In this document: one piece after another, positions 49,300-64,000 of the stretch
How the letters are laid out: the number at the start of each line of letters is the position of its first letter
Position numbering within the stretch: the stretch's first letter is position 1
Assembly: GCA_043732185.1 (NCBI GenBank)
Contig: JAYTHY010000136.1
Location: forward strand, 60,330-124,329
DNA: 64,000 nt
Reading direction: 5' to 3'
Source of the DNA: Fibrobacteria bacterium
GTDB taxonomy: Bacteria; Fibrobacterota; Fibrobacteria; UBA11236
Position numbers and translations under genes: made by a program
The notes under the pieces: model-generated
The model's input: only the letters and a program-made list of their open reading frames with translations
The model's database searches: none
What the model was told of the DNA's origin: nothing

Positions 49300-49995
49300 T
49301 TAAGCCAAAAGCCTCTCCAACTTCATTTTCCATTTTTCCCAATCCCGCATTGTCTTGGATTGCAGTTCGATGAATTTTTGGGTGTGATCGTGATGGATGA
49401 GGTGGCAGAGTTCGTGGATGATGACATATTCAATGCAGCCTTTTGGTGCTTTGACGAGTTCTGGGTTAAGAATGATTTTTCCCTTGGCGGTACAGCTCCC
49501 CCAACGCGTTGGCATCTCTTGAAGGGTAAACCTCGGTGGATTCAGCTTAAACTTGGCAAAGCGCTTCAGCAGCGGTTTGGAAATTTCTAGGAATTTTTCT
49601 TCGGCCTTTTGTCGATACCATTTTCTGAGTAAGGCACCCGCATTAGACTTTTCGTGGGTAGTGATTTGGAGAATTCGCCCTATCCTTTTGACTTGATCTG
49701 GAGTACCGACTTTAATTTTGAGCATGTACTGTCGGCCTAAGAATAAGTGCGTCTCGCCGCTGACATATTTTCTTCTTGGCGTTTTGGGATGATAGGTTAG
49801 AAAAAAGCTTTGCTGTTTTAGAATCCAAGCGGCTTTACTTTTGACCTTCGCTTTCACCTTTTCCAATGTAGAGTCGAGTGGCGCGATGACCCTTACATTC
49901 ATGTCGGGAGTGATGGTGATGCCTAAGGTCTTCCGGGGAGAAAAGCTTAGATGGAAGGAAATTTTCTTTGAGCCAAATTGAATGGACTCCATCAT
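49300..49995 (-). CDS. YgjP/DUF45 M48-family metallopeptidase-like protein
   Basis: YVSGETH.FLG, RWGSC and IEYVIIHELCH..H..KF. Coupled to hsdR by an ATGA overlap. Confidence 0.92.
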   Translation of the reverse strand: MMESIQFGSKKISFHLSFSPRKTLGITITPDMNVRVIAPLDSTLEKVKAKVKSKAAWILKQQSFFLTYHPKTPRRKYVSGETHLFLGRQYMLKIKVGTPDQVKRIGRILQITTHEKSNAGALLRKWYRQKAEEKFLEISKPLLKRFAKFKLNPPRFTLQEMPTRWGSCTAKGKIILNPELVKAPKGCIEYVIIHELCHLIHHDHTQKFIELQSKTMRDWEKWKMKLERLLA

Positions 49996-52900
49996 TGCTT
50001 ATATCTTATTTTTGCCACCTCGACGATTCGCTCCGCAATGGCATCGATTTCTTCGAAACTGAGGGTAATGGCATATTTATCGCGAACCTCATCAATCAGA
50101 TAATCGCCGATAAGGTGGATCATCTTTTTTTGGATATCGATATTACTGGGCGAATGCCAGTCGACTTTTATGAACTTTTGAATGATAGCATCGGTCATTA
50201 TGGCGATGTCGGCGGAAACACTTTTCAATGTTTCTTCCGACGTGAATTTGAGGCTCAAGCCATCCCGAGCAATGCCGTAAAAAGCCTTGGCTACATCCCT
50301 TTCCTTAAGTGACTCGGGTATATCCGAATCCGATTTCGAGAGCACGCTTTCCATGATGCTTTTGGCCTTGGCTAAATACTGCGATTCCGTGAGGCGGGCA
50401 TCTTCGTAAGCCTTAATGGTGTCTTTCAGCATGGTGGAAAACTTCTTGTAGAAAGCCGGATCTTCGTCCATCTTCACACTAATATGCTTGGCCGTTCTTG
50501 AGGCAATTTTATCGGCTTTTGCTGCCTCCCCTTCGGTTTTTTCCACTTCCCGTTGGAACTCCGTTTTGTCGAATATATTGACCAAGGCCGTGATGGGTTT
50601 AACCTCATCGGTTTGGACATGGGTATCAATAAGCTTTTGGATCTGCCCTTCATATTGCTTATAGTCGATGGCATCGGAAAACCGCAGGACCACGGCACTT
50701 CGCAATTTTATGAAAAAGGCCAAGTCATCGGTGTAGCGATTAATGGCTTTTTCATCGTGGTCTTTATGGAACTGAATTGAGGAAAGCGCGAGCTTTAAAA
50801 TTCGTGCGAAGGCGGCCAATTTATCGTAGAACTCCACGCGAACGGCTTCATCCCTTAGAAATTGTTGGTAGGCTTCGGCATCCCGCTTGTTCTTCACCGT
50901 TTTAAAGACATCCCAGAGTTCGGAATGCTTTTGGGGTAGCTTTTTGATTTCATCGATAATACTGGTCAAGGTGCATTCCAGATCGGATTCGTCGAATTCC
51001 TCAAAGGAGGAATACAATTCCAAGGCATCATCCAAGGCACCGAGTACGCCATAGTAATCGATGATATATCCGAAATCCTTATCTGGAAAAATGCGGTTCA
51101 CACGGGCAATGGCCTGCAAGAGCGAATGGCCTTGCAACTTACGCGTTAGGTACAAAACCGTATTTTTCGGCTCGTCAAATCCAGTCAGGAGCTTGTCTAC
51201 TACAATGATGATTTCCGGATGCGGCTGGTTCTTGAATCGGTTGATGATATTCTTGTCGTAACTTTTGGGGTTACCATGCTCATCCATCATTTTTTTCCAG
51301 AAGGCTTTCACCTTATCTGGCGTTTCCCCAAAGGCGCTGTCCTCGCCTTCTCGCTCGTCTGGGGGTGAGATAACCACATCGGAAGTGATGATTCCAATTT
51401 CATCCAAAAAGTGTTTGTACTTGATGGCTGCTTCTTTAGTCTGGGTAACCAATTGGCCTTTGAAAGGCGTACGGCCTTGAAAATTATCCCGGAAATGTTG
51501 GCTGATGTCCCAGCAAATGGCATAGATTTTTTGTTCGGCAATATTCAGCTGATCGGCTCGACTGAATTTCTTTTTTAGATCCGCTTTGAGGTAATCGGGC
51601 AATGGCTCGGAAACTAAGCTGAAATAATTGTCGATGGGTTTTTCGTTGACGTACTGATAGGCATGGCGGCCTTCATAAAGCAACGGCACCACGGCTTTGT
51701 CTTTAACTGCCTTATCCACGGTATAATCGTCAATTACTTTTCCAAATTTACTAAGGGTGCTTTTATCTTTTTTGAATAGGGGCGTTCCCGTGAAAGCAAT
51801 AAAGCAGGCATTGGGCATGCTTTTCTGCATTTCAATATTAAAGGTGCCATGTTGGGTACGATGGCCTTCATCCACTAAAACGAAAATATTAGGGCTCTCC
51901 AATATTTCCATTTTTCTCACCGCTGTTTCAAACTTATTGATGACGGTAGTGACCACGGCATCGCTTTTACTTTGTAAGAGGTCTACCAAACGTTGACCGG
52001 TGGAAGCATTTTCCACCACCATGCCGCATTTGCGAAAGGTGCCGGTGATTTGCACGTCCAGGTCGGTCCGATCCGTGACCAAAACGATTTTCGGATTGAG
52101 AATATCATTATGAATCGCAATTGCTTGGGCCAAGAGAACCATGGTGAGAGACTTGCCACTACCCTGCGTATGCCAAATAACTCCGCCTTTACGCTTTCCG
52201 CCCTCTAACTTAAGAAGTTGGGTCATGGCCTTTTTAACCGCAAAGAACTGCTGATAACGAGCGACCTTTTTTTCGCCATCATCAAACAACACAAAGTTAT
52301 GGGTAAAATCCAGCAAGCGCTCGGGCCTGCATAAGCCTTGCAGGTATTCATCTTGAACGGTTGATAATATCGGTGCCTGCTCTAATGCATCGAAATATCC
52401 GCGGGCATATTTAAAGTGATCGCCAAAGAGGGCCTGTTTTTGCGCCGCATCTAAGGGCGCGTTGATGAGTGCCGTGAGTTGCTTGCGACTATCCTTTTCT
52501 GCCTCGCTACTGCTAAATTTTTCTTCCCAATGAGCCCAATATTCGCCCTTGGTGCCCGCAGTCGCATAACGGGCTTGATTGCCTGCAAGGCCTACGACCA
52601 ACTGGGCATAGGCATAAAGGTTTCGGATGCCATCCTCTTGCTGATTGCGTAAATGTTGGGATACGGCTTGGTTCAGAGAATCTTTGATATCGGGCCTTTT
52701 GCATTCAAGAATGCAAAGCGGGATGCCGTTCACGAATAAAACAATATCCGGCCGATAATGCTCTTTGCTGGTGCTGCGCATCACGGCATATTCATCGGTT
52801 ACGTGGTAAAGATTATTGCCCAGGTCTTGCCAGTCGATATACTGGAGGGTGAAACTCTTTTTATCCCCGTCGACATTTTGCTCCAAGGCCTTGCCCAAGG

Positions 52901-53207
52901 TGATGAGGTTATAGGCCGTTTCACAGGCGGAAATGTATCCCTCGTTCATGGGCAAATCTTTGAGTGCCTGGATGCCGTTCTCGATATTGGCATCGCTGAA
53001 AAAAGTGGATCGAGTGGAGCTGACTCGGGGCGAATTGATGGCTTTGAGCTGCTTGCGGAGGATGGTTTCGAGCAGAACTTGGGTGGTTTTCCCACCTCGG
53101 GCCGCTAAGGCTTGGTCAGGGGAGAGGTAGGTAAACCCCAGCTTTTGCAATAATTGCAGGGCCGGGATTTGGCTGATCTGGTCTTCTTTGAAGCTGGGCG
53201 TTTCCAT
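49992..53207 (-). CDS. hsdR: Type I restriction endonuclease subunit R
   Basis: Nuclease motif RPDIVLFVNGIP..ECK, Walker A HTQGSGKS, DEGHR, FTGTP, LLTGFD and LQAIARVNR. Confidence 0.97.
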   Translation of the reverse strand: METPSFKEDQISQIPALQLLQKLGFTYLSPDQALAARGGKTTQVLLETILRKQLKAINSPRVSSTRSTFFSDANIENGIQALKDLPMNEGYISACETAYNLITLGKALEQNVDGDKKSFTLQYIDWQDLGNNLYHVTDEYAVMRSTSKEHYRPDIVLFVNGIPLCILECKRPDIKDSLNQAVSQHLRNQQEDGIRNLYAYAQLVVGLAGNQARYATAGTKGEYWAHWEEKFSSSEAEKDSRKQLTALINAPLDAAQKQALFGDHFKYARGYFDALEQAPILSTVQDEYLQGLCRPERLLDFTHNFVLFDDGEKKVARYQQFFAVKKAMTQLLKLEGGKRKGGVIWHTQGSGKSLTMVLLAQAIAIHNDILNPKIVLVTDRTDLDVQITGTFRKCGMVVENASTGQRLVDLLQSKSDAVVTTVINKFETAVRKMEILESPNIFVLVDEGHRTQHGTFNIEMQKSMPNACFIAFTGTPLFKKDKSTLSKFGKVIDDYTVDKAVKDKAVVPLLYEGRHAYQYVNEKPIDNYFSLVSEPLPDYLKADLKKKFSRADQLNIAEQKIYAICWDISQHFRDNFQGRTPFKGQLVTQTKEAAIKYKHFLDEIGIITSDVVISPPDEREGEDSAFGETPDKVKAFWKKMMDEHGNPKSYDKNIINRFKNQPHPEIIIVVDKLLTGFDEPKNTVLYLTRKLQGHSLLQAIARVNRIFPDKDFGYIIDYYGVLGALDDALELYSSFEEFDESDLECTLTSIIDEIKKLPQKHSELWDVFKTVKNKRDAEAYQQFLRDEAVRVEFYDKLAAFARILKLALSSIQFHKDHDEKAINRYTDDLAFFIKLRSAVVLRFSDAIDYKQYEGQIQKLIDTHVQTDEVKPITALVNIFDKTEFQREVEKTEGEAAKADKIASRTAKHISVKMDEDPAFYKKFSTMLKDTIKAYEDARLTESQYLAKAKSIMESVLSKSDSDIPESLKERDVAKAFYGIARDGLSLKFTSEETLKSVSADIAIMTDAIIQKFIKVDWHSPSNIDIQKKMIHLIGDYLIDEVRDKYAITLSFEEIDAIAERIVEVAKIRYKQ

Positions 53208-53240
53208 TATTTCCCCAAAAACGGCAAAAGACATGTATAG

Positions 53241-53336
53241 TTTCTTTGCATATACCCATGGTCATGTAAAGAAAATACCGTATTTCTTTGCATGATAACC
53301 CTAATATGAGTCAAAAAGTGTGGTTTTCTTGTCATG
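53241..53336. repeat. Periodic operator-like repeat array between fic and hsdR
   Basis: TTTCTTTGCATA (53241), TTTCTTTGCATG (53283) and TTTCTTGTCATG (53325) at 42-bp spacing, plus an inverted copy CATGTAAAGAAA (53263). Confidence 0.7.
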
Positions 53337-54414
53337 AGGGACTGGCACCATTTAAAAGAAGCTGATAGAGGTCATCGTTGATGTAAAAGTTGTCCTTGCC
53401 GATTTTGTGCCGGGTGAGATGGCCGATTCTAACCAGCTCATCCAAATAACGCGTCGCCGTGGGTCGACTCACCCCCAAATCGCGAATGATGAAGTCAATT
53501 TTGGTATAGGGATGCCGGAAAATATTATTCAGAAGATCTTGGCTATAAATTTTCGGAAGCTCGGTTCGCATTTTAAGTTTGTGCTTTTGCATCAATAGTC
53601 TGATGCCATGAATTTGTTGGATGGATTGCAAAGCCGTTTGTTCCACGCCGTCCAATATGTACAAGACCCATTCCTGCCAAGCATTGTCCGTCCGCACTTT
53701 TTGCAAAAGCTGATAGTACTGGGCTTTGTTTTGATTGATATATCGGCTCAGATACAAGATTGGAATTTTAAGCAGACCTTCCTTGACCAAATAAAGAATG
53801 TTAATGATTCTCCCTGTGCGCCCATTGCCATCATAAAAAGGGTGAATGCTTTCAAACTGATGATGAATAACAGCCATTTTCACTAAGGGATCCCAATCCG
53901 ATAGGCTATTGTCATTCATGAAATTCTCGAGATTGCGCATTAGGCCCAGAATTTCATCCGGATGCTGAGGCGGAGTATAAACGATTTCCTGGGTGAGTTC
54001 ATTCTTCAAAGCCGTCCCAGGGAGTTGGCGATATCCAGCCTGATTTTCCTCAATAAGAGCCTGAACTTGGAGGATATCGTTATTAGAAATGATGCCGGTC
54101 CTTTTAACGGTCTCAAAGCCATTCCGCAAGGCCGTGGCATAGCTATGAACTTCCTTAGCCGCCACACTTGCAAATTGCATGGCAATCACATCGGCGCGAT
54201 AAATTTCGTCCTGGGTGGTGATAATATTTTCAATGGCGGAACTGTCTTTGGCTTCTTGCAAGGAAAGTGTGCTGATAAGGATGGTTTCATTGGGAATAGC
54301 ATCTGCGGCCCCTTTTAATTCGGCCAGGGCTTGATGGGCTTTGGCTACTTTTTTTAAGACGGCCTTGGTTTCGAGGTCAGTGGCGAAGGGAAGATGGGTT
54401 AGTTTATGTGTCAT
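53332..54414 (-). CDS. fic: Fic family AMP-transferase (class II, with C-terminal HTH)
   Basis: HPFYDGNGRTGR, inhibitory motif SSAIEN, and a C-terminal HTH (LGVSRPTATRYLDEL). Confidence 0.95.
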   Translation of the reverse strand: MTHKLTHLPFATDLETKAVLKKVAKAHQALAELKGAADAIPNETILISTLSLQEAKDSSAIENIITTQDEIYRADVIAMQFASVAAKEVHSYATALRNGFETVKRTGIISNNDILQVQALIEENQAGYRQLPGTALKNELTQEIVYTPPQHPDEILGLMRNLENFMNDNSLSDWDPLVKMAVIHHQFESIHPFYDGNGRTGRIINILYLVKEGLLKIPILYLSRYINQNKAQYYQLLQKVRTDNAWQEWVLYILDGVEQTALQSIQQIHGIRLLMQKHKLKMRTELPKIYSQDLLNNIFRHPYTKIDFIIRDLGVSRPTATRYLDELVRIGHLTRHKIGKDNFYINDDLYQLLLNGASPS

Positions 54415-55477
54415 GTTTTTTCCCCGTTTTGGGCTTTGTGATTCGGTCTTCAAGCAGTCGTTGCTCACGATCCAGTTCCTGACGAAGCTCTTCTTCCGTT
54501 GGTAAAATCAGTCTGTATTTGCTGGCAAAAAGCCGTTTGTTTTCATGCATTACCGAGAACCGTACAACGGATGCATCCTTCTGGGCGCAAAGCACAACTC
54601 CTACAGTAGGATTGTCTCCTTTTACCCTCTGCTGATGATCAAACATGCGGACATACATATCCATTTGACCTACGTCCTGATGCGTGAGCTCACCAGTTTT
54701 GAGGTCAAAGAGCACGAAGCATTTGAGTAGGTAATTGTAAAAAACCAAATCGACGAAAAAATCTTTGGACTCCGTACTAAGGCGTTGCTGGCGCTCTACA
54801 AAAGCGAAGCCCTTTCCAAGTTCCAAAAGGAATTGCTTGAGGTTGTCGATTAGCGCTTGTTCTAAGTTGGATTCTAACAAACGACCCGTCCCCGGCAGAC
54901 CAAGAAATTCAAGTAGAACAGGATCCCGGATAAAGTCGCGAGGATTTTCTTTTAGGCTTTTGATTTTTGTAGTTGCCTCTTTGCGCAATGGCTTACGATC
55001 TTTGCTGGATAATAAACGCTCGTAATAAAGCGTTCCAATTTGCCGTTCCAATACGCGGGTGGTCCAGTTTTGCTCAACCGCTTCATTCATGTACCAAAGG
55101 CGGGCATGCGAATCTTCAACTCGAAGTAAGGTCCGAAAATGTGTCCAGCCCAATTCGGTACGCACTGCGTTCCAAATTGGGAATGTCTGATAAAAGACCC
55201 GCATATTACGAAGATTACGTTCGTCAAAACCTTTTCCGAATTCGGCCGTTAGGGTATCTGCCAATCGAGAAAGAAGCTTCGCGCCGTATTGGGCACGTGC
55301 AACGCCATGTTGCTCAAACTCCACGATATGACGGCCTATTTCCCAGCAGGTTAGCACCTGAACGGAATCGACCGCACGCAATACTTGCTTTCTGCCCGCA
55401 AGAATCAGTTCACGAAGCTCGCCCAGTAATTGGACTACACTGGTTTTTTTAGTGGCTTTCTTCACTAATTTTTTCAT
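54404..55477 (-). CDS. YhcG/DUF1016 PD-(D/E)xK nuclease-family protein
   Basis: WEIGRHIVE, GF..RNL..MR.FY, LGWTHF, FLLELGKGFAF, DLVFYN..DLK and GQMDMY. Confidence 0.93.
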   Translation of the reverse strand: MKKLVKKATKKTSVVQLLGELRELILAGRKQVLRAVDSVQVLTCWEIGRHIVEFEQHGVARAQYGAKLLSRLADTLTAEFGKGFDERNLRNMRVFYQTFPIWNAVRTELGWTHFRTLLRVEDSHARLWYMNEAVEQNWTTRVLERQIGTLYYERLLSSKDRKPLRKEATTKIKSLKENPRDFIRDPVLLEFLGLPGTGRLLESNLEQALIDNLKQFLLELGKGFAFVERQQRLSTESKDFFVDLVFYNYLLKCFVLFDLKTGELTHQDVGQMDMYVRMFDHQQRVKGDNPTVGVVLCAQKDASVVRFSVMHENKRLFASKYRLILPTEEELRQELDREQRLLEDRITKPKTGKKHDT

Positions 55478-56274
55478 AGTATTCGGATTTTCCGTTGCAA
55501 CTTTTTCACATCTTCTGCGGGTGGTAGTGACTCGGGGATAATTCCTCTCTCTAAAAGCATAGTCCGTACCGCACCGCTATTGTCGAGATGTTCTCTTTCA
55601 ATAGGACTGTGCCCGGTCAGGTCTTTACTTTGAACATTCAAGCTGGTCATTTCGGCTGCTAAGTCTTTGGCCTTGATGCTGATGGTGGGAAGAAAATCCG
55701 CTAAGGGGCGATTTTCCGGGACTCCCAATTTTCGCTTGAGCATATGGGTGGATAGATGGAAAAGGGCCTGATCGCCCTTGGAGCGGATGATGGCGAAGCC
55801 TTTATCGTCTACCCCACGCTCGTAGAGAATACCGGAAAGCTGCTTTTCTGTTTGGCTCAGTTTTTCCCTCGCTTTGACCCTCTCGAATTCTAATAGGCGC
55901 TGTTCGATAAGTTCCGCACGCCGGGTCTGGACGGCGAAATAGGTTTGGGCGAAGGCTATTTCGGGCTTGCGGCTATCTCCATTCTGGGCAAGGAGATAGC
56001 ACGCATAACGAGTTAGAGCGATGTCTTCAATTGGTCTTTCCGCCTCCGACCCTATGGTGACCATTTTCCTGACGTCAGGAAAATGGTTATCCGTATTCTC
56101 CCCTGAATGCCTACAAGAATCCTTGGCTTTTTCAATGATTTTCAAGAAATTTTCCCATTTACTATAGCCGAGTAAAGGTTGCAGTTCACGTCCGCTCCAA
56201 CATTCAATTTCGTCTATTTCGGATTTAGCATTCTCAAATTGTGCGAGAAGCTGTTTGATCTCATCGGTTTTCAT
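55474..56274 (-). CDS. dinD: DNA-damage-inducible protein D family (copy 1)
   Basis: ECWSGRELQPLLGYSKW.NF, LTRYACYLLAQNGDSRK..IAFAQTYFAVQTRR and PESLPPAEDVKK. Confidence 0.9.
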   Translation of the reverse strand: MKTDEIKQLLAQFENAKSEIDEIECWSGRELQPLLGYSKWENFLKIIEKAKDSCRHSGENTDNHFPDVRKMVTIGSEAERPIEDIALTRYACYLLAQNGDSRKPEIAFAQTYFAVQTRRAELIEQRLLEFERVKAREKLSQTEKQLSGILYERGVDDKGFAIIRSKGDQALFHLSTHMLKRKLGVPENRPLADFLPTISIKAKDLAAEMTSLNVQSKDLTGHSPIEREHLDNSGAVRTMLLERGIIPESLPPAEDVKKLQRKIRIL

Positions 56275-57515
56275 GGTTTGAATCCTTTCAATCTTTTTTT
56301 TCCGGTTAACAAAACTTGCATCATTCCCTTTTTTTGCTCTTTTAGTTTCGCTCCTTTGGCTTTGAGGAGTTGGATTTCTTTGTCGGCGGATTGTAGTACT
56401 TTGGCAATCGCCACTTGCTCCTGTTTAGGGGGAAAAGGGACTCTTAGTTTAAAAAAATCGTCTGAATCAACATTTAAAAGACCATCACCTCTTGCACCCG
56501 AAGAAATAATCCTCCTGAGTTGCCGATCAAGCCCATGCGCGAAAAACCATTGTTTATAAAATGTGGAATGAACTTTCTCGGTTGGGCTAAAACAGATATA
56601 CACAAAGGGTACGAGCGCGCTTTCTTTTTCTTCCAGCTGAAAGACGCAACCCATTTGATAGGTCTTTGAATTGCCTTTGTTATAAGCGAAATCGCCTCGT
56701 TTGAGCTGTGTGTATTTTTTCAAGCTATCACCGGCTATGACCCGGTCGAATTTGTCTTCTTGTGAGATTAGCCCTAACCTTGAGGAGATGGTCATGATGG
56801 AATGGCTATCACCACCGTCATTTGTGGCAGTAATTTCATTGAAGGCTTCACCAAGCCGAACGGTTTTCCACTCCCCTCCAAATCCCTTCAACCTTTTCTT
56901 CCCCGTCAGCAATTGTTGCATCAAGGCTTTTTTCTGCAATTCTTTTTGGGTAATCAACTGGTTGGTTTTGTTGATGGCGGAATCCATCAGGCTGAGGACG
57001 GCGGCGATGGCTTTTTGTTCGGTATACTTCGGGATAAATAGTTTTATCTTCCTTAACTCTTCCAATGAAATCTCTTGGAAAGTACTGCCCTTTGCTACTT
57101 CACTAATTTTTTTTGTGACGGCCTGGGATTGCAAAGACTGCTTCACAAATTCAATATCACAAATAGATTCATTGACAGAAATTCTCGCCGTTCCCTGTGT
57201 TAAATTTGCAGTATTCAAATTCGATGGAACTAAGCTTAACTCGCCAATATTTCCTCGCAATGAAAACACAATGTCTCCGGGATGCACCTCAGATCTGCTA
57301 TATTTATTTGCGATTTCAAGTGAGGTTTTACTTAGCGTACTTACAACTATATCCCCTCCAACGTCAGAGCTTTTAATATAAGGTATGCCATCAACTACTT
57401 CGGGTCCTGCTTGGACAATACCATACACTATTGGCTTTTTTGAGACCTCCTGAAGCTCTAGGATATCCCAGTCAGAAGGAGTTAAATAAATCGGCACAGG
57501 AATTTTAGTGGTCAT
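56271..57515 (-). CDS. hsdS: Type I R-M specificity subunit S (two target recognition domains)
   Basis: PSDW start, and two conserved regions EQ.AIA.VL...K..MQ.LLTGKKRLKGF. Confidence 0.95.
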   Translation of the reverse strand: MTTKIPVPIYLTPSDWDILELQEVSKKPIVYGIVQAGPEVVDGIPYIKSSDVGGDIVVSTLSKTSLEIANKYSRSEVHPGDIVFSLRGNIGELSLVPSNLNTANLTQGTARISVNESICDIEFVKQSLQSQAVTKKISEVAKGSTFQEISLEELRKIKLFIPKYTEQKAIAAVLSLMDSAINKTNQLITQKELQKKALMQQLLTGKKRLKGFGGEWKTVRLGEAFNEITATNDGGDSHSIMTISSRLGLISQEDKFDRVIAGDSLKKYTQLKRGDFAYNKGNSKTYQMGCVFQLEEKESALVPFVYICFSPTEKVHSTFYKQWFFAHGLDRQLRRIISSGARGDGLLNVDSDDFFKLRVPFPPKQEQVAIAKVLQSADKEIQLLKAKGAKLKEQKKGMMQVLLTGKKRLKGFKP

Positions 57516-57541
57516 TATGCAACCAGGTGGGTATAGATATA

Positions 57542-57653
57542 GTGTGAGGGATGGTAAGGGTGGCGCAGCCAGTGCGCGTCGCGCGCACCGGAGCGAAGCG
57601 GAGCCCTGCACAGCCCGACCGCGTTGCGACCTTGGCGCGGCGTGGGCACGCCC
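57542..57653. repeat. GC-rich palindromic mini-element (REP/MITE-like) upstream of hsdS
   Basis: 112-bp GC-rich segment in AT-rich flanks. Hairpins GTGCGCG-TCG-CGCGCAC and CCGCG..CGCGG, and an imperfect outer stem GGGATGGTAAGGG / CCCTGCACAGCCC. Confidence 0.6.
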
Positions 57654-57677
57654 GAATCATTCTGCCGGTTATACGCT

Positions 57678-58535
57678 TCATTTTGTCTTCTCACCTTTAA
57701 TCGATTTCGAGGGTTCCTTTTTATCCAACTTCTTAACACTTTCAACCACAGGCAGATTTTCAGGCATAGTGCCACCGATTTCCTCGATGGTCTTGCGAAC
57801 TTTTTTACCGATCTCGAAGTGCGTTTGGTTCGCTAGTTTTTTGCCTTGAATATTGTCCCGCTGCAACTTGTCTTCGGTTTGCGTGGCGCGAAAAAGATTG
57901 GCCGCCAATTCTGTGCTACCCATATGGTCCAGAATCTGTTCGCTTTTCTTCAAACCTTTTTTGGTGTGAATTCCCTTGGCATCCAAACCACCGTAGAGAC
58001 CTTTATATCCGAAATTCTGGAAGATGGCATAGTCGATGGGGTCGATAACGCCGGCCCCACGGGCTACGTCGGCCAATTGTTTATTGTGGACGGCCATTTC
58101 CTTACGAAGAAATATGCGTTTCTCATCCTCCGTGCTTAATTTTCCATATGCCTCCATTTGCTGAATTTCTTGCAAACGGGTTTGGACTGCAAAATAGGTT
58201 TGACCGAAGGCCACCACTTCTTTACCCGGATCAGCATTTTGTACGATCAAATAGCATGCATATCGGCTGAGTTTTACGTTTTCGACCTCACGTCGGGCTC
58301 CCTTCCCAATTTCGATCATATCGAGGAGATCCTCGAAATGATCCGGCGCTGACTGGCCGCTATTTTTACAAGCTTCCCTAGCCTTTTCCATTGCTGGGAT
58401 GAAGTGCCTGTATTCGGAATATTCTAAAACTTTACTGAGTTCGCGGGCGGACCAGAATTCGTCACCATTTTCATCGATGCGCTTTATTTGTTCAAAGACT
58501 AGCGGCTGATTCGGTTTGGAAATTTCTTTGGTCAT
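57678..58535 (-). CDS. dinD: DNA-damage-inducible protein D family (copy 2)
   Basis: FEQIK..EFWSAREL..LEY, LSRYACYLIVQNADP.K, FQNFGYKGLYGG and ILDHMGSTELAANLFRATQT. Confidence 0.93.
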   Translation of the reverse strand: MTKEISKPNQPLVFEQIKRIDENGDEFWSARELSKVLEYSEYRHFIPAMEKAREACKNSGQSAPDHFEDLLDMIEIGKGARREVENVKLSRYACYLIVQNADPGKEVVAFGQTYFAVQTRLQEIQQMEAYGKLSTEDEKRIFLRKEMAVHNKQLADVARGAGVIDPIDYAIFQNFGYKGLYGGLDAKGIHTKKGLKKSEQILDHMGSTELAANLFRATQTEDKLQRDNIQGKKLANQTHFEIGKKVRKTIEEIGGTMPENLPVVESVKKLDKKEPSKSIKGEKTK

Positions 58536-58536
58536 A

Positions 58537-60120
58537 TTAGTTTGACTCCGTCAGCTCTTTGAGATACTTCCCCAACTCCGCCTGCACAACCTTCAGTTCC
58601 TTTTCCAACTTTTCAATCTCCACCTGCACGGCCCCGATATCCACCTCTGCCTCTTCCTCAAACGTATCCACATACCGAGGAATATTCAGATTGAAATCAT
58701 TTTCAGCGATTTGCTCCACCGTCGCCACAAAGCTGAATTTCTCTTCCACCACACCCGCTTGCATTTTACCCGCATTGAACTTCCGATACGTTTCCACAAT
58801 ATGCGCCAGATCCTGTTCTCGCAGCTTATTCTGATTCTTGCCGTTTTCAAATGCCTGACTGGCATCGATGAAAAGCACGTTCTTGTTTTCGCCTTTTCCC
58901 TTATTGAAAATGAGGATGGCCGCGGGAATTCCGGTGCCGAAAAACAAGTTGGCTGGCAATCCAATCACGGCTTCTAGGATATTTTCTTCGATGGTCTTTT
59001 GCCGGATTTTACCTTCGCTGCTGCCTCGGAATAAAACGCCATGCGGCACCACAACGCCCACCTTGCCCTTGCCCTCATAGGTGGTTTCGATCATATGGCT
59101 GATGAAAGCCCAATCGCCCTTGCTCTTGGGGGGCACGCCGCGCCAGAAGCGATTGTAGGGATCGGAGTCGGGGTCAAAACTTTTGGCGGCTTTGTTTTCT
59201 TCCTTATCCTTGTCGTCGACCTTGCCCCATTTGTCGAGGGAGAAGGGCGGGTTCGCCACCACGGTGTCGAACTTCATTAGGGCATCGCCTTCCTTCAGCT
59301 TGGGATTGCGGATGGTATCGCCCCAGCGGATATTGGCATTGTCGAAACCGTGCAGGAACATATTCATGACCGCCAGAGCCCAGGTGCTGCCATTGGCTTC
59401 TTGTCCGTAGAGGGAGAAATTATCCGAGCCCACTTCTTTACCAGCTTTAATGAGCAAGGAGGCAGAGCCGCAAGTGGGATCGCAGATGCGCGCACCGGGT
59501 TTGCTTTTGGTGAGCCGGGCCAGCAAGGTGGAGACTTCGCTGGGAGTGTAGAATTCACCGGCTTTTTTTCCTGCATCGCTGGCGAAGTTGGAAATGAGGT
59601 ATTCATAGGCATCGCCGATGATGTCATTCCGTTCCAAGTGGGAGGGCGTGAGATCCATTTTGCTGAAATCGAGGAGCAGGTTTTTCAAGCGGCTATTTTT
59701 TTCTTTTGCATCGCCGAGATTATTGCTGTTGAAACTGATATTGCGGAAAATGCTGCCGTCTTCGCTGCTGAGTTTTTCACGATTGGCTTCTTCTAAATCC
59801 GCCAAAGCAATGTCGATGACCTCGCCAATATTGGTAGCATTGCGGTTTTCATGGAGATAGTCGAAAGTGCTGGTAGCAGGGACTACGAAGCGCTCCATCT
59901 TCATGGCGCGTTCGGTTCTATTGGCGTCGCCTTTGTATTTGGCCAAGTGGGTTTGATACATCTCCTTATGCACATCGCTCACATACTTGAGAAAAAGCAT
60001 GGTGAGGATATAATCTTTATACTGGCTGGGATCGATTACACCTCGAAAGGTATCGCAGGCTTTCCAGACGATATTGTTGATTTCTTTTTGGGTGATTTTT
60101 GGGATTTGACTTTGGCTCAT
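58537..60120 (-). CDS. hsdM: Type I R-M N6-adenine methyltransferase subunit M
   Basis: WKACDTFRG, GEFYTP, DPTCGS, ANPPF (motif IV), HGVLFRG and FNLNIPRYV. Confidence 0.97.
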   Translation of the reverse strand: MSQSQIPKITQKEINNIVWKACDTFRGVIDPSQYKDYILTMLFLKYVSDVHKEMYQTHLAKYKGDANRTERAMKMERFVVPATSTFDYLHENRNATNIGEVIDIALADLEEANREKLSSEDGSIFRNISFNSNNLGDAKEKNSRLKNLLLDFSKMDLTPSHLERNDIIGDAYEYLISNFASDAGKKAGEFYTPSEVSTLLARLTKSKPGARICDPTCGSASLLIKAGKEVGSDNFSLYGQEANGSTWALAVMNMFLHGFDNANIRWGDTIRNPKLKEGDALMKFDTVVANPPFSLDKWGKVDDKDKEENKAAKSFDPDSDPYNRFWRGVPPKSKGDWAFISHMIETTYEGKGKVGVVVPHGVLFRGSSEGKIRQKTIEENILEAVIGLPANLFFGTGIPAAILIFNKGKGENKNVLFIDASQAFENGKNQNKLREQDLAHIVETYRKFNAGKMQAGVVEEKFSFVATVEQIAENDFNLNIPRYVDTFEEEAEVDIGAVQVEIEKLEKELKVVQAELGKYLKELTESN

Positions 60121-60131
60121 GATAGACTCGC

Positions 60132-60692
60132 TCAGTTGATGGCTTGTAGGAGGATTTGTTGATTTTGATTTTCGCGTAAAGTATGAATCTGCTGCAAGAT
60201 GGCTTTTTCTTTTTTCATCAGTGCCGTTGCCGCTACAATCTTGATCTGCTTTTGCAGGGACGGGATGGCGACGTCAAGATTTTCCAGAACTTCTTGGGTA
60301 ATCGAGGGTAGGTTTGTGCCGCGCGCTACACGGGAACACCAAGCTTGGGTTTGCGGATGATTGAAATACCACTGAAGATATTCGGGCAAAATCATTTGCT
60401 TATTTCTGATCCGAATAACCATGAAGACCGAGGACGCGACGGCCTTGGCCATATGGCTTTGGTATAGAACAGCTCGGTTTTTATTTCCCTTAACTGCGAA
60501 TAAAATATCGCCGGATTGCAAAAGGTGTTTTTTGCTTTTACCCTCTAATTTTAGGTCGGGTTTGGTGCTTGGATCAAAATTTCCGGCTTCATCAAAGTGG
60601 CGGACTTGGACATAGAGGACGTCACCGGATGGATCCGGTTTGGCATAAATGCCGGAGTTGAGGTCTGCGATTTCCTTGAGGCAGGTTTTCAA
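60132..60692 (-). CDS. Half-size, single-TRD HsdS-like protein
   Basis: LKEIADLNSG, LQSGDILF, PEYLQWYFN, GT.LPSI and IPSLQKQ. TTG start at 60692 behind GAGGA. Confidence 0.85.
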   Translation of the reverse strand: MKTCLKEIADLNSGIYAKPDPSGDVLYVQVRHFDEAGNFDPSTKPDLKLEGKSKKHLLQSGDILFAVKGNKNRAVLYQSHMAKAVASSVFMVIRIRNKQMILPEYLQWYFNHPQTQAWCSRVARGTNLPSITQEVLENLDVAIPSLQKQIKIVAATALMKKEKAILQQIHTLRENQNQQILLQAIN

Positions 60693-60807
60693 ATTATCCT
60701 CGGTACCTGGACTACAATATAATATCAACGGTTAAAATTGGCAATATATATTTAAGTAATGGCTCTACAAAAGTTTTATGGCCATAAAAGAAGCATTTTA
60801 GGACTGC

Positions 60808-60845
60808 GCTTTGAATATTCAGTCGGGCTTTGAATATTCCGTCGG
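60808..60845. repeat. Tandem 19-bp direct repeat with an internal palindrome
   Basis: GCTTTGAATATTCAGTCGG followed by GCTTTGAATATTCCGTCGG (18/19 identical). Each copy contains GAATATTC. Confidence 0.8.
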
Positions 60846-60951
60846 CAAAGGAGGTTGGCCGGAAGGCAGTCGCATTGTGCGCTCCATCACATCGCAAAAT
60901 CTCGAAGTTGGTATTCTTTGCACCATGAAGTTCGATCACTCCGCCAATCCC

Positions 60952-63549
60952 ATGTCAGACCCATTCAAGTCATGGGACGCGTTTAATCCCAAAGCCCCTG
61001 AGGACATTTTTACAAAACCCAATCCAAAGGCTGGTGCCAAAGGCAGAATGGGTGGTGTCGGCGGCGGTGGGGGAGGTAGCCGTGCCCGCCAACCAGAGCC
61101 AGAACCCGAGTTAGAACCACTCGACATTCCAGTTGAACCTATAGCCCCCGCGCCGGAAAAGCCTGAGCCCTCGGTCACGCTGCGCAACCCAAAATGGGAA
61201 ATCGAAAAAGTTGGGTTTAATGAGAATACGGATATTTCCATTGAAGTAGACCTGCCGGAAAAAATCGCCCATAGAACCAAAATTACCTTTGAACTTTTCG
61301 CCAAAACTCCGGATGGACCATGCCGCATCGTACAAGGCGAAGCCCATGCCAAGGAGGGTAAGGCCCTATGCTGCATTCCCGTCTACATCCCCAGTTATAA
61401 GGATGCCAAAGGCAATCGATTACAAAAGGTCGATTATTATTTCACTGCCAAGCATACGGAATCAGCGCTTCTAGACGGATCAAAAAAAACCAAGTTGGTC
61501 GATGAGATGGCCGAACGCCTGATCGAAACCCACATCGTGCCTAACCAGATCTTTGCTTCTGGAAAAAGTTTTTTACATCCCAAGTACGCGACCGAGTTGA
61601 AGGATATGTGCGCGAAGATCAAAGTCTGGCGGGACAAGCATCCGGATGAGAAGCTGGCGGTATTTGGACACACGAATACAGTAGGCAAGGACGTATCCAA
61701 TAAGGCTTTATCTGAGCGCAACGCGAAATCGGTTCATGGTTTTCTGATGAAGGATGCGAGTGTGTGGTGCGAATTGGATAAAGAGGAAAAGTGGGGATTG
61801 TCTGAAGTCCAAGAGTTGCTGAATCATTTAGGGCATGATGCGGGGGCATCGGATGGGCATGACGGGCCTAAGACACAAGCTGCGGTGAAGGCCTTTCAGA
61901 CCAAGCAGGGTTTACTGGTTGATGGGCAAGCCGGGGCAAATACGCGTGAGGTTTTGTATCAAGCTTTTATGGAGGATTGTAACACCTTGAACTTGAAAGC
62001 CAAAGCCTTTGATTCTATTAACGGACATCCTACGGCCGGTTGCAGCGAGTTTAATCTGGTGGAGAAATCAGACGGGGCAAGTGAGGCGAATCATCGGGTA
62101 GCGGTGTTATTTGTGAAGTCCAACAAGAATTTTCCGATTCATTATCCATGTGCCAAAGGCGATGTAGGTGCGTGTAAAAGCCAAGTGGCGCAAGAGGGCC
62201 ATCGGAGGACGGCTGGTTTTGGCTGTAAGTTTTATGATGAGTTGGTGAAGGAAAAGCCTACGCATGGTGGCAAGAGCGCGGATAAACCAAAGGATGAAAT
62301 AATCCATGTGGGGATTTTCTTCGATGGTACGGATAACAATCGAGACCGGGACCGGCCTTTGAAACACGATACCAATGTGTCCAAACTATTCGACCTTTAT
62401 CAGCAAGACGATAAATCGCGCTATAAGTTTTATCTCGAAGGGGTTGGTACTGGCAATTGGCTAAAATCGGATAAATTTTCAGGCGGATTTTCTGGCCGAG
62501 GCATTTATGATCGCATCGTAAGAGCCACGAAAAGTTTAAAAGATGTCACAGACAAACATCCGGAAAGTGAAATACGTCTTTCCGTATTTGGATTTAGTCG
62601 GGGAGCTGCCACTGCGCTGGCCTTTATAAACTATCTATTTGATAAAGGGGCTACGACACCCGTTCAAAGTTCGGCTTCTGCTGGGTCCAACATTAGTTTC
62701 GGCTTGCCATCGCAGCCAACACATTCTACAACCCCAGAAGAAAATGCTAAAAAATTGGGTTTTGAAAAGGTCTGGTTTGTGGGCCTTTTCGACACTGTAG
62801 CCTCGGTTGGAATGCCCGGAGATGATAAGGAATACACGCATGATGTATCGGTTAAGCATTCGAAAATCCGTCGACTCACCCATTATGTAGCCAGGGATGA
62901 GCGACGCGGTCTGTTCCCATCCACAAGTATCCATACCGGTTCCGGATCAGCGCTTCCATCCGGGTGGGAGGAAAAAATCTTTCCGGGCGCGCATTCGGAT
63001 GTTGGGGGTGGATACGAGGAGCAATTAGAAGATATGGCCAATGCATCCCATGACCAAGGACAAGATCATACGAAGGTTGTGAACCACACCAAAAAGGGAG
63101 ACCATTTGTCCCGGGTGGCAGGCTGGGCGATGTACGATGCAGCTCTAAAAGCGGATGTTCCGATGTACGGTATTAATTTTGATAGTCCGACTTCAAGCCC
63201 TGCCCAACACGCTTTCGACAATATTATGATGGGTAAAACAGTTGAGGAAATTCCTGAAAATGGCTGGACGACTTTTAAGCTACCAGATGGAACCGAAAAT
63301 TCACATGAGAAAACAAAAGACGCTTTAAAATTGCTCTCAATTCCATTTCACCTCGGTCCCCTATGGAAATCGCGGAATTCAGAATCTACCTTTAATGGTT
63401 TAGTATCAATTCATGACCCCGATTTCAAAGACAATATTTATCCTTATATCCATGATTCCCTTGGTTTGATGGACCCCAAAGGTATTGGCGAATCTGTAGG
63501 TATAAATGCCAGCCCACGAACAACCATATATCGAGGTGTACCAAAATGA
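60952..63549 (+). CDS. OmpA-like / peptidoglycan-binding / DUF2235 (Tle1-like phospholipase) fusion protein, putative toxin
   Basis: FASGKSFL..FGHTN..N.ALSERNA.SV..NHRV (OmpA-like), VQELL..LG..DG..GPKT..AVKAFQ...GL..DG.AG..T (PG_binding_1), and GIFFDGT..TNV..GFSRG..GLFDTV..FPGAHSDVGGGY (DUF2235). Start uncertain (60925 or 60952). Confidence 0.88.
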   Translation: MSDPFKSWDAFNPKAPEDIFTKPNPKAGAKGRMGGVGGGGGGSRARQPEPEPELEPLDIPVEPIAPAPEKPEPSVTLRNPKWEIEKVGFNENTDISIEVDLPEKIAHRTKITFELFAKTPDGPCRIVQGEAHAKEGKALCCIPVYIPSYKDAKGNRLQKVDYYFTAKHTESALLDGSKKTKLVDEMAERLIETHIVPNQIFASGKSFLHPKYATELKDMCAKIKVWRDKHPDEKLAVFGHTNTVGKDVSNKALSERNAKSVHGFLMKDASVWCELDKEEKWGLSEVQELLNHLGHDAGASDGHDGPKTQAAVKAFQTKQGLLVDGQAGANTREVLYQAFMEDCNTLNLKAKAFDSINGHPTAGCSEFNLVEKSDGASEANHRVAVLFVKSNKNFPIHYPCAKGDVGACKSQVAQEGHRRTAGFGCKFYDELVKEKPTHGGKSADKPKDEIIHVGIFFDGTDNNRDRDRPLKHDTNVSKLFDLYQQDDKSRYKFYLEGVGTGNWLKSDKFSGGFSGRGIYDRIVRATKSLKDVTDKHPESEIRLSVFGFSRGAATALAFINYLFDKGATTPVQSSASAGSNISFGLPSQPTHSTTPEENAKKLGFEKVWFVGLFDTVASVGMPGDDKEYTHDVSVKHSKIRRLTHYVARDERRGLFPSTSIHTGSGSALPSGWEEKIFPGAHSDVGGGYEEQLEDMANASHDQGQDHTKVVNHTKKGDHLSRVAGWAMYDAALKADVPMYGINFDSPTSSPAQHAFDNIMMGKTVEEIPENGWTTFKLPDGTENSHEKTKDALKLLSIPFHLGPLWKSRNSESTFNGLVSIHDPDFKDNIYPYIHDSLGLMDPKGIGESVGINASPRTTIYRGVPK

Positions 63550-64000
63550 AAAATAAAAGGCCGCTCCTAATTACCCTAATCTTCACTTTGATAGTGAGTG
63601 GTTTGTGGCTATTTCGCTATGATATTTCCTTCGGAAAATATTATGCGATTTATGACATCACTGTCACTGATACGTTGAAACGGAGTCACAGTGCGTCACT
63701 CCAGTTTGGCACGCATTCTTTTTCGGCAGGTGGATTCACTGGTAATGCTGTAAACATCGGAGTGTCGGCGCCTATCCCAGATTCTGCGGTGCAAGAATTT
63801 TTTGAATATGCAAAACGAGATCCAAAATACATGACTACTGATTCGCTTGGATATGGTGTCTATAGTGGCCCCCCTGTCGAGGATCCACCGTCACGTTACG
63901 TAAAAATCCCCGTACTCTCCCGCCTTCCCAAGCGGACGATGTTTCAAAAATACGCCTTCCATTTCACCATCTATCCCCACGACAGTGTGGCTTTAGAAAT
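63546..64000 (+). CDS. Putative immunity protein, N-terminally anchored (3'-truncated by window edge)
   Basis: ATG overlaps the toxin's TGA. Reads MKNKRPLLITLIFTLIVSGLWLFRYD... and stays open to the window end. Not in the ORF track because it has no stop codon. Confidence 0.65.
   Translation, partial: MKNKRPLLITLIFTLIVSGLWLFRYDISFGKYYAIYDITVTDTLKRSHSASLQFGTHSFSAGGFTGNAVNIGVSAPIPDSAVQEFFEYAKRDPKYMTTDSLGYGVYSGPPVEDPPSRYVKIPVLSRLPKRTMFQKYAFHFTIYPHDSVALE

Follow-up and report, generated by a model that had tools for sequence, protein, structure and literature searches.

Effectors carried as cargo by type VI secretion systems (T6SS) have no common signal, and each new marker (MIX, FIX, RIX, PIX and WHIX) opened a pool of novel toxins. 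In these classes a conserved N-terminal domain precedes diverse C-terminal toxins, in T6SS genomes only (MIX, FIX and RIX, PMC10435454; PIX, 10.1101/2023.07.16.549128; WHIX, PMC12135965). Here we analyse a gene near the end of a 64,000-nt stretch of Fibrobacteria DNA (the window), which closes contig C136 in an assembly of 4.46 Mb (G000). The product is a Tle1-type lipase attached to the back of a conserved carrier, and an overlapping partner gene comes next. We consider it somewhat more probable than otherwise that this carrier-Tle1 protein is an antibacterial effector injected by the T6SS and probably loaded with the Hcp tube, the next gene being likely its immunity gene. The carrier appears to work like the MIX, FIX, RIX, PIX and WHIX classes, matching none of them by the profiles available. 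It has in common with them the conserved N-terminus, the diverse C-terminal toxins and the restriction to T6SS genomes, and with RIX the existence of adaptor-like members without a toxin domain, located ahead of a separate cargo gene (PMC10435454). Unlike all five, it has an unnamed immunoglobulin-like (Ig) domain and an optional OmpA-like fold split by a PG_binding_1 domain (OmpA-PGB) and closed by four cysteines (Cys4), it was found in Fibrobacterota, and it is interchangeable with an Hcp-like fusion. The leader of the carrier is Pro/Gly-rich, whereas RIX is Arg-rich (PMC10435454).

Other described systems resemble single parts of the protein. Tle1/Tli1 pairs (PF09994), such as that of P. 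aeruginosa (PMC13133936), likewise combine a GxSxG lipase that has Ser-Asp-His motifs and lacks a signal peptide with one or more adjacent downstream genes, which encode an export or anchor signal and may be duplicated. Unlike theirs, the window lipase is preceded by a carrier of 445 aa in the same protein, neither a vgrG gene nor a DUF4123 adaptor gene was seen upstream within the window, and the DUF3304 profile of DUF3304-type Tli1 proteins found no match at E<=1 in 8 members of the partner family. Specialised Hcp effectors (Hcp-ET or extended Hcp; 10.1101/2021.10.07.463556, PMC13323088) recall the homologues of G018, G021, G034 and Chitinispirillaceae, made of an Hcp-like domain, a long extension and a variable C-terminal domain (hereafter tip). 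Unlike them, the window protein has a short leader instead of Hcp, and in its homologues Ig and OmpA-PGB lie between Hcp and tip. BtaeB, from the VgrG cargo complex of Bacteroides fragilis (PDB 9jdh, 9jg8; cited in PMC13699834), also has an Ig-like fold in the N-terminus of a T6SS effector; the window Ig domain is 9-10% identical to it, shows no sequence match, and scores it in a tie with generic Ig folds. Finally, TagL, TssL-OmpA and the Tox-OmpA of PVC toxins (PMC3482391) have the OmpA-C fold. The Tox-OmpA of that paper is always C-terminal and is PVC-delivered, whereas the carrier OmpA is internal, split by PG_binding_1, closed by Cys4 and located in a signal-less toxin-bearing protein. No description of the carrier was found in the literature searched, which left subscription papers largely outside; architectures of this kind may already figure in the supplements of PMC3482391 and 10.1101/2021.10.07.463556.

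A conserved carrier with exchangeable tips

The front end of the window protein is a polymorphic carrier, in which a conserved N-terminal region is followed by diverse C-terminal domains of putative toxins. A preliminary description of the window had proposed such a carrier, with swapped toxins and a covarying downstream partner, and the comparison of homologues bears it out. First, 281 proteins from fetched loci and database searches were pooled; 133 of them (a redundant set) had a complete Ig and OmpA-PGB core and formed 31 clusters. After de-duplication 114 cores remained; 3 rows belonging to two contig-cut tip classes were then set aside, which gave 111. Clustering the last 130 aa distributed these distinct cores among 29 tip classes, an approximate number because some database proteins may be contig-cut. 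On a FastTree tree of the carriers the tips require 51 changes, where 28 is the smallest possible number and shuffling gave 79 on average; they are therefore partly inherited and repeatedly exchanged. For instance, loci L068 and L069 bear unrelated tips on carriers 94% identical. The opposite situation, a constant C-terminus with no variable partner among the homologues, was checked, and tips and partners both vary.

Tips above profile cut-off include Tle1, CHAP, BPSL0067, TIGR02594, SLT, glucosaminidase, peptidase C39, pesticin and Het-C; matches to GH19 and Hydrolase_2 stayed below cut-off, and the large HExxH tip classes gave weak Pfam matches only. In genome G000, four OmpA-PGB proteins (window, C124, C47 and C36) have a complete C-terminus and a strong carrier match and fall into three C-terminal classes. 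Those of C124 and C47 bear HExxH tips of two classes and that of C36 lacks Ig; a distant copy lies on C126, C80 and C124 each have the 5' half of a carrier, and C28 and C115 each have a short leader-Ig gene. Four other database proteins have the architecture of the window protein. Full-carrier relatives are titled Fibrobacteria or Fibrobacterota, and partial matches to OmpA-PGB-Cys4 occur in records of Planctomycetota, Ignavibacteria and Myxococcota. An unpublished genome (G011; loci L052, L053, L075 and L082) is included in the tip, partner, tree and phylum tallies, and no claim depends on it alone.

Two further tip types were observed. The C-termini of L058 and L069 have no Pfam match, contain His/Cys motifs (HHQSSHG, ANCC), look caspase/CHAT-like by eye and are followed by a small signal-less gene. 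In the HExxH class of L049 and L039, two similar-looking partner genes lie downstream, one without and one with a signal peptide.

The layout of the protein (Table 1) agrees in most respects with what had been read from the sequence at the outset. The announced Gly/Pro/Glu-rich, signal-less N-terminus was found, the first 70 aa being rich in Pro, Gly, Ala and Glu and devoid of any hydrophobic stretch (best 11-aa hydropathy of 0.19 in the first 60 aa). An AlphaFold model of residues 70-438, built from 33 homologues (pLDDT 91.9), turned the announced beta-rich domain into an Ig-like beta-sandwich, followed by OmpA halves flanking a helical insert. Pfam placed OmpA at residues 201-267 and PG_binding_1 at 284-335. 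The reading of an OmpA domain interrupted by PG_binding_1 is right, because the model aligns to the OmpA domain of TagL across both halves (Z 13.3, root mean square deviation (rmsd) 2.1 over 111 residues). We take TagL and TssL to be structural membrane proteins. Concerning the proposed Cys-containing linker, the cysteines are confirmed, all four being invariant in 114/114 cores, but they do not lie in a loose linker: the model predicts a fold here (pLDDT about 89-92), with the first Cys inside the second half of the OmpA fold. The Asp and Arg of OmpA-like domains, which presumably form the diaminopimelate site, line up with those of solved OmpA domains; the Asp is kept in 103 and the Arg in 112 of the 114 cores, and the window copy has Asn at both positions. 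The lipase matched PF09994 at residues 455-697 (E 2.6e-31, 109.5 bits for a cut-off of 27). Its catalytic motifs are intact at precisely the positions first given (GFSRG 62590, GLFDTV 62782, GAHSD 62986) and align with those of solved Tle1 proteins (matches to PDB 9j3f, 6sjl and 4o5p).

Table 1. Features of the carrier-Tle1 locus (positions in the window)
Feature	Position	Strand	Basis
Carrier-Tle1 gene, 865 aa, or 874 aa with ATG 60925 as start	60952..63549	+	Open reading frame call
Leader (DPF..FNP..DIF motif) and Gly/Pro/Glu-rich linker, signal-less; Hcp-like domain instead in some homologues	60952..61167	+	
Unnamed Ig-like beta-sandwich, proposed T6SS delivery marker	61168..61512	+	Structure model, fold comparison
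OmpA-like fold, two halves; Asn in place of both the family Asp (GHxD) and the family Arg (LSxxR)	61519..62115	+	
PG_binding_1 helical domain, inserted in the OmpA fold	61801..61956	+	Pfam and model
Four cysteines C364, C400, C408 and C425; the conserved carrier ends here	62041..62244	+	
Short variable junction; C-terminal domains exchanged behind it	62245..62301	+	
Tle1-type lipase, predicted triad S549 (GFSRG), D614 (GLFDTV), H681 (GAHSD)	62302..63546	+	
Candidate immunity gene overlapping by ATGA; membrane anchor at the N-terminus, beta-sandwich predicted; truncated where the contig ends	63546..64000	+	

For the Ig domain, no Pfam family was found at E<=1, no PDB sequence matched its profile and the ESM Atlas gave no usable match; Foldseek with the carrier returned generic Ig and OmpA matches only. 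The protein gave no MIX, FIX or Rhs match with Pfam and NCBIfam, it being unchecked whether these libraries include every such model. The carrier/lipase junction is bridged by contigs of two studies (X1 59500-62777 and X6 61636-62928; X1 may be the source sample); on account of these contigs and of the four database proteins of the same architecture, a mis-assembly was rejected. Metagenomes containing the stretch come from sediment, and no RNA data set containing it is listed. Concerning the start, translation may begin at ATG 60925, which gives an N-terminus closer to the leader of the homologues. A promoter scan gave one site, on the minus strand and at chance level. No clear Shine-Dalgarno sequence was seen at 60900-60930 or upstream of the C124, C80 and C28 copies; a pyrimidine-rich stretch immediately precedes the ATG in the four copies, and initiation may be leaderless or atypical.

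Partner genes and orphan cassettes

The overlapping next gene and its hydrophobic anchor, both announced beforehand, were recovered (hydrophobic stretch at residues 7-25, hydropathy 1.94 over 19 aa). No obvious lipobox was seen in this plain anchor, and no Pfam family was above cut-off. Full homologues of the partner are 179 aa long; the family comprises 18 database proteins, was found in 6 of 61 genomes, and adjoins a Tle1 match in 10 of the 12 loci checked. The partner model (pLDDT 73.6) had no clear fold match (best Z 6.2), and the ESM Atlas placed it in unnamed clusters at <=0.90. Complex prediction with the Tle1 domain and partner of the complete G002 pair scored 0.00; this is no answer and was used neither way.

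More generally, among the fetched loci a same-strand gene follows 40 of the 47 carrier open reading frames (ORFs), overlapping by 4 nt in 20 of these 40. A hydrophobic N-terminus was detected in 21/40 partners versus 0/101 carriers. We then compared 37 classified loci pairwise. Among the 666 pairs, tip and partner family were alike in 49, the tip only in 39 and the partner only in none. As judged from these sequence comparisons, the downstream gene covaries with the tip, and the gene overlapping the lipase likely encodes its immunity protein.

Standalone toxin/immunity cassettes likely lie nearby. The last 98 nt of C136 are common with C7, and the first 99 nt common to C7 and C2 encode the C-terminal end of the partner; because these ends are shared, C136-C7-C2 is the likely contig order, on which the adjacency of the cassettes rests. 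Run X1, with doubled depth and a loose end, agrees with this order. C7 encodes a headless version of the L080 carrier tip (83% identity) and an ankyrin lipoprotein related to the L080 partner (63% identity), along with a headless Tle1 piece (73%) and a second copy of the window partner. A similar array occurs at L088. Polymorphic toxin systems show this organisation (PMC3482391).

Probable type VI secretion and possible routes of loading

Four carrier layouts were distinguished: leader-Ig-tip, with phage lysozyme, M23 or HExxH tips; leader-Ig-short beta domain, followed by a separate cargo gene; leader-Ig-OmpA-PGB-tip, as in the window; and Hcp-Ig-OmpA-PGB-tip. The leader is of an aromatic/proline type, and a motif of DPF/NPF type is present in 70 of 101 database carriers. 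OmpA-PGB-Cys4 was also found behind LysM, PAAR or prealbumin-like domains. The N-terminal 450 aa or so had been taken as the carrier at first; they are conserved, and the common unit is reduced to leader and Ig. Because Ig is common to the four layouts and OmpA-PGB occurs without it, leader plus Ig is the candidate delivery marker and OmpA-PGB is optional. With such a marker, effector loci become visible that are scattered over a nearly unstudied phylum and are mostly orphans; several of them have tips that belong to no known family, and novel partner families.

Members of the wider OmpA-PGB-Cys4 family (P0127, P0135, P0139-P0142, P0217 and others) have a LysM-like N-terminal domain and varied C-termini. 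At C28 81-3036 and C115 5556-8359 (L043 and L044), two genes follow a short leader-Ig gene, one for a predicted lipoprotein and a separate one for Lipase_3; the short leader-Ig genes are candidate adaptors acting in trans.

Besides the distribution of TssC described below, four kinds of observation link the carrier to the T6SS. First, the genome encodes TssA, C, F, G, L and M, two Hcp, VgrG and PAAR, with the core cluster on C112. Second, an Hcp domain above the Pfam cut-off stands in frame before the carrier, replacing the leader, in 4/4 copies of G018, and before Ig in 2 contig-cut ORFs of G021 and in 11/11 long database proteins tested, some of them labelled Chitinispirillaceae. The two Hcp-like types are mutually 17-26% identical, which suggests separate fusions or one old fusion; the fused domains are also 17-26% identical to the Hcp of the genome. 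The two G021 ORFs being contig-cut, Hcp plus Ig only was not counted as a separate form. Third, the C-terminus of the only PAAR protein of the genome is a BPSL0067 tip that shares 73% identity with the tip of carrier L072; the lipoproteins encoded downstream of the two are 62% identical, so that PAAR and carrier draw on one cassette pool. Fourth, P0217 joins PAAR to the OmpA module, and some distant loci of this module adjoin spike genes (see below). The initial statement that no delivery marker was visible thus stands for the window protein itself and fails for its homologues, given their Hcp-like and PAAR fusions and the distribution of TssC.

This distribution was established on 201 genomes of the phylum, which are kin, so that the counts are not independent. 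Carrier matches (E<=1e-15) were found in 34 genomes and Ig matches (E<=1e-5) in 36, making 45 in all. TssC was detected in 45/45 of these module-positive genomes, and none of the 114 TssC-negative genomes has a match. The co-occurrence check proposed at the outset also covered extracellular contractile injection systems (eCIS), whose gp19-type tube gene was found in 16/45. Delivery by the T6SS, by whatever route, is rated likely. As side observations, TssC was detected in only 3 of 78 genomes of the largest family sampled (f5), 12 having gp19-type tube genes instead, and C98 (L037, 3218-11363) has a VgrG-DUF2169-PAAR operon followed by a PG_binding_1 and HExxH protein with partner genes.

The mechanism that we favour would start with synthesis in the cytoplasm, because the protein has no signal peptide. 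Leader and Ig would then dock it on the T6SS, most likely on Hcp. Hcp is preferred as dock because an Hcp-like domain replaces the leader in two divergent lineages and because stacked Hcp rings can enclose two separate domains of one effector, one extended Hcp per ring having been proposed (PMC13323088). After firing, OmpA-PGB would bind the peptidoglycan of the prey and keep the enzyme in the periplasm, the compartment in which P. aeruginosa Tle1 attacks phospholipids (PMC13133936). The lipase would hydrolyse membrane phospholipids with its Ser-Asp-His triad, and the membrane-anchored partner would neutralise lipase arriving from kin. Recombination at the junction after the Cys motif, supplied by downstream orphan cassettes, would renew the tip.

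Several points weigh against this picture, besides the approximate tip classes and the kinship of the genomes mentioned above. Retention in the periplasm or at the wall cannot be general, because the window copy lacks the OmpA Asp/Arg pair and 19/40 partners have no clear hydrophobic N-terminus. The carrier-Tle1 protein has no Hcp, PAAR or VgrG domain in Pfam or NCBIfam. The fused Hcp-like domains are divergent, mostly scoring 25-33 bits for a Pfam cut-off of 23.5, and the one tested against NCBIfam TssD reached 33.8 bits, below the cut-off of 58.9. TssC is present in 87 of the 201 genomes, and 42 of these 87 show neither module. VgrG, PAAR or DUF2169 was found in the flanks of only 2/67 fetched loci, many of which lie on short contigs. 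A four-domain cargo of 865 aa is far above the 39-kDa example enclosed by Hcp, and the best fold match of the Ig domain is a spike-bound cargo.

The last point leads to the first alternative, the same toxin-immunity system and T6SS with loading on the VgrG/PAAR spike, Ig docking on transthyretin-like or Ig extensions of PAAR or VgrG, perhaps in a cargo chain like the Bacteroides BtpeA-BtaeB-BtapC complex. The Ig domain matched the BtaeB N-terminal domain best (9jdh, Z 10.8, rmsd 2.8, 108 residues aligned) and the VgrG-bound complex 9jg8 at Z 10.3, but generic Ig folds follow within about 1 Z unit (10.0, 9.9 and 9.7), so that this match is a tie. P0217 is a PAAR-LysM-OmpA module fusion, and among 11 distant loci inspected the wider OmpA-PGB module has VgrG, PAAR or DUF2169 as a neighbour in 4. 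In G005 a gene of the leader-Ig-tip layout precedes vgrG on its upstream side, and association with the tip of the apparatus has been proposed for large effectors (PMC13323088). However, wherever a T6SS part directly precedes Ig the fusion is Hcp-like, and a single VgrG and a single PAAR would have to serve at least 7 carrier or Ig genes in the genome. Spike loading is thus rated rather unlikely, and loading with the Hcp tube remains the preferred route.

A broader proposal goes beyond Hcp loading of the window protein: the aromatic/proline leader and Ig would be a phylum-wide, non-covalent stand-in for an Hcp subunit, threading toxins of 60-150 kDa bead-like through the tube, with OmpA-PGB-Cys4 clamping the toxin to the wall of the victim after injection. 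We regard it as unlikely. If true, the toxin carrier would bear two addresses, that of the gun and that of the target. The natural swap of a short leader for an Hcp-like domain bears on how large cargoes are loaded, and OmpA-type domains are possibly target-side anchors, beyond anchoring the secretion machine.

Exit by a route other than the T6SS, in the first place as cargo of the eCIS of the genome itself, is very improbable. Such a system is present on C42 (L038, 21000-40900), with sheath, gp19 tube, Pvc16_N, AAA ATPase, gp25, spike and baseplate J, and OmpA domains occur in PVC-delivered toxins (PMC3482391). However, the tube gene, detected in only 16/45 module-positive genomes, turned up neither in G018, whose completeness is 100%, nor in G013 (98%), and the module is absent from the 12 genomes that have a tube gene but no TssC. 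The C-terminal position of Tox-OmpA does not fit either, and the fusions seen here are with Hcp and PAAR. That the carriers would be no weapons at all, being wall-anchored enzymes of the producer (for instance envelope-remodelling accessories of its own T6SS, with regulators as partners), is very improbable as well. In its favour, anchoring to the cell wall is the classic role of OmpA and PG_binding_1, the T6SS anchor TagL gave the best fold match and many tips are peptidoglycan hydrolases. Against it, none of 101 carriers has the hydrophobic N-terminus for reaching its own periplasm, tips are also lipase, Het-C and protease-like domains, and conflict systems are typically marked by what is seen here, namely tip exchange, tip-specific and duplicated partners and orphan cassettes without a head.

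Neighbouring restriction islands

Just upstream of the carrier, the window contains a divergent type I restriction-modification island (49300-60728, minus strand) with hsdR, hsdS, hsdM and a short hsdS-like gene, along with Fic-like, DinD-like and other genes named by eye. A second such island lies on C124, a contig of 20.8 kb that begins and ends inside carrier genes. No integrase was recognised by eye in the ORF lists of these islands. Among the 67 other loci fetched, 6 have type I restriction-modification genes in their flanks (three of the six are one orthologous island), and carrier effector genes may gather at the borders of defence islands. Synteny with G008 orders C80 (1-450, minus strand), C124 and C47 (1-3225) as a carrier with a first tip and its partners, the island, then a carrier with a second tip and its partner. 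The first carrier of this series has two in-frame stops in the present assembly and is intact in G008.

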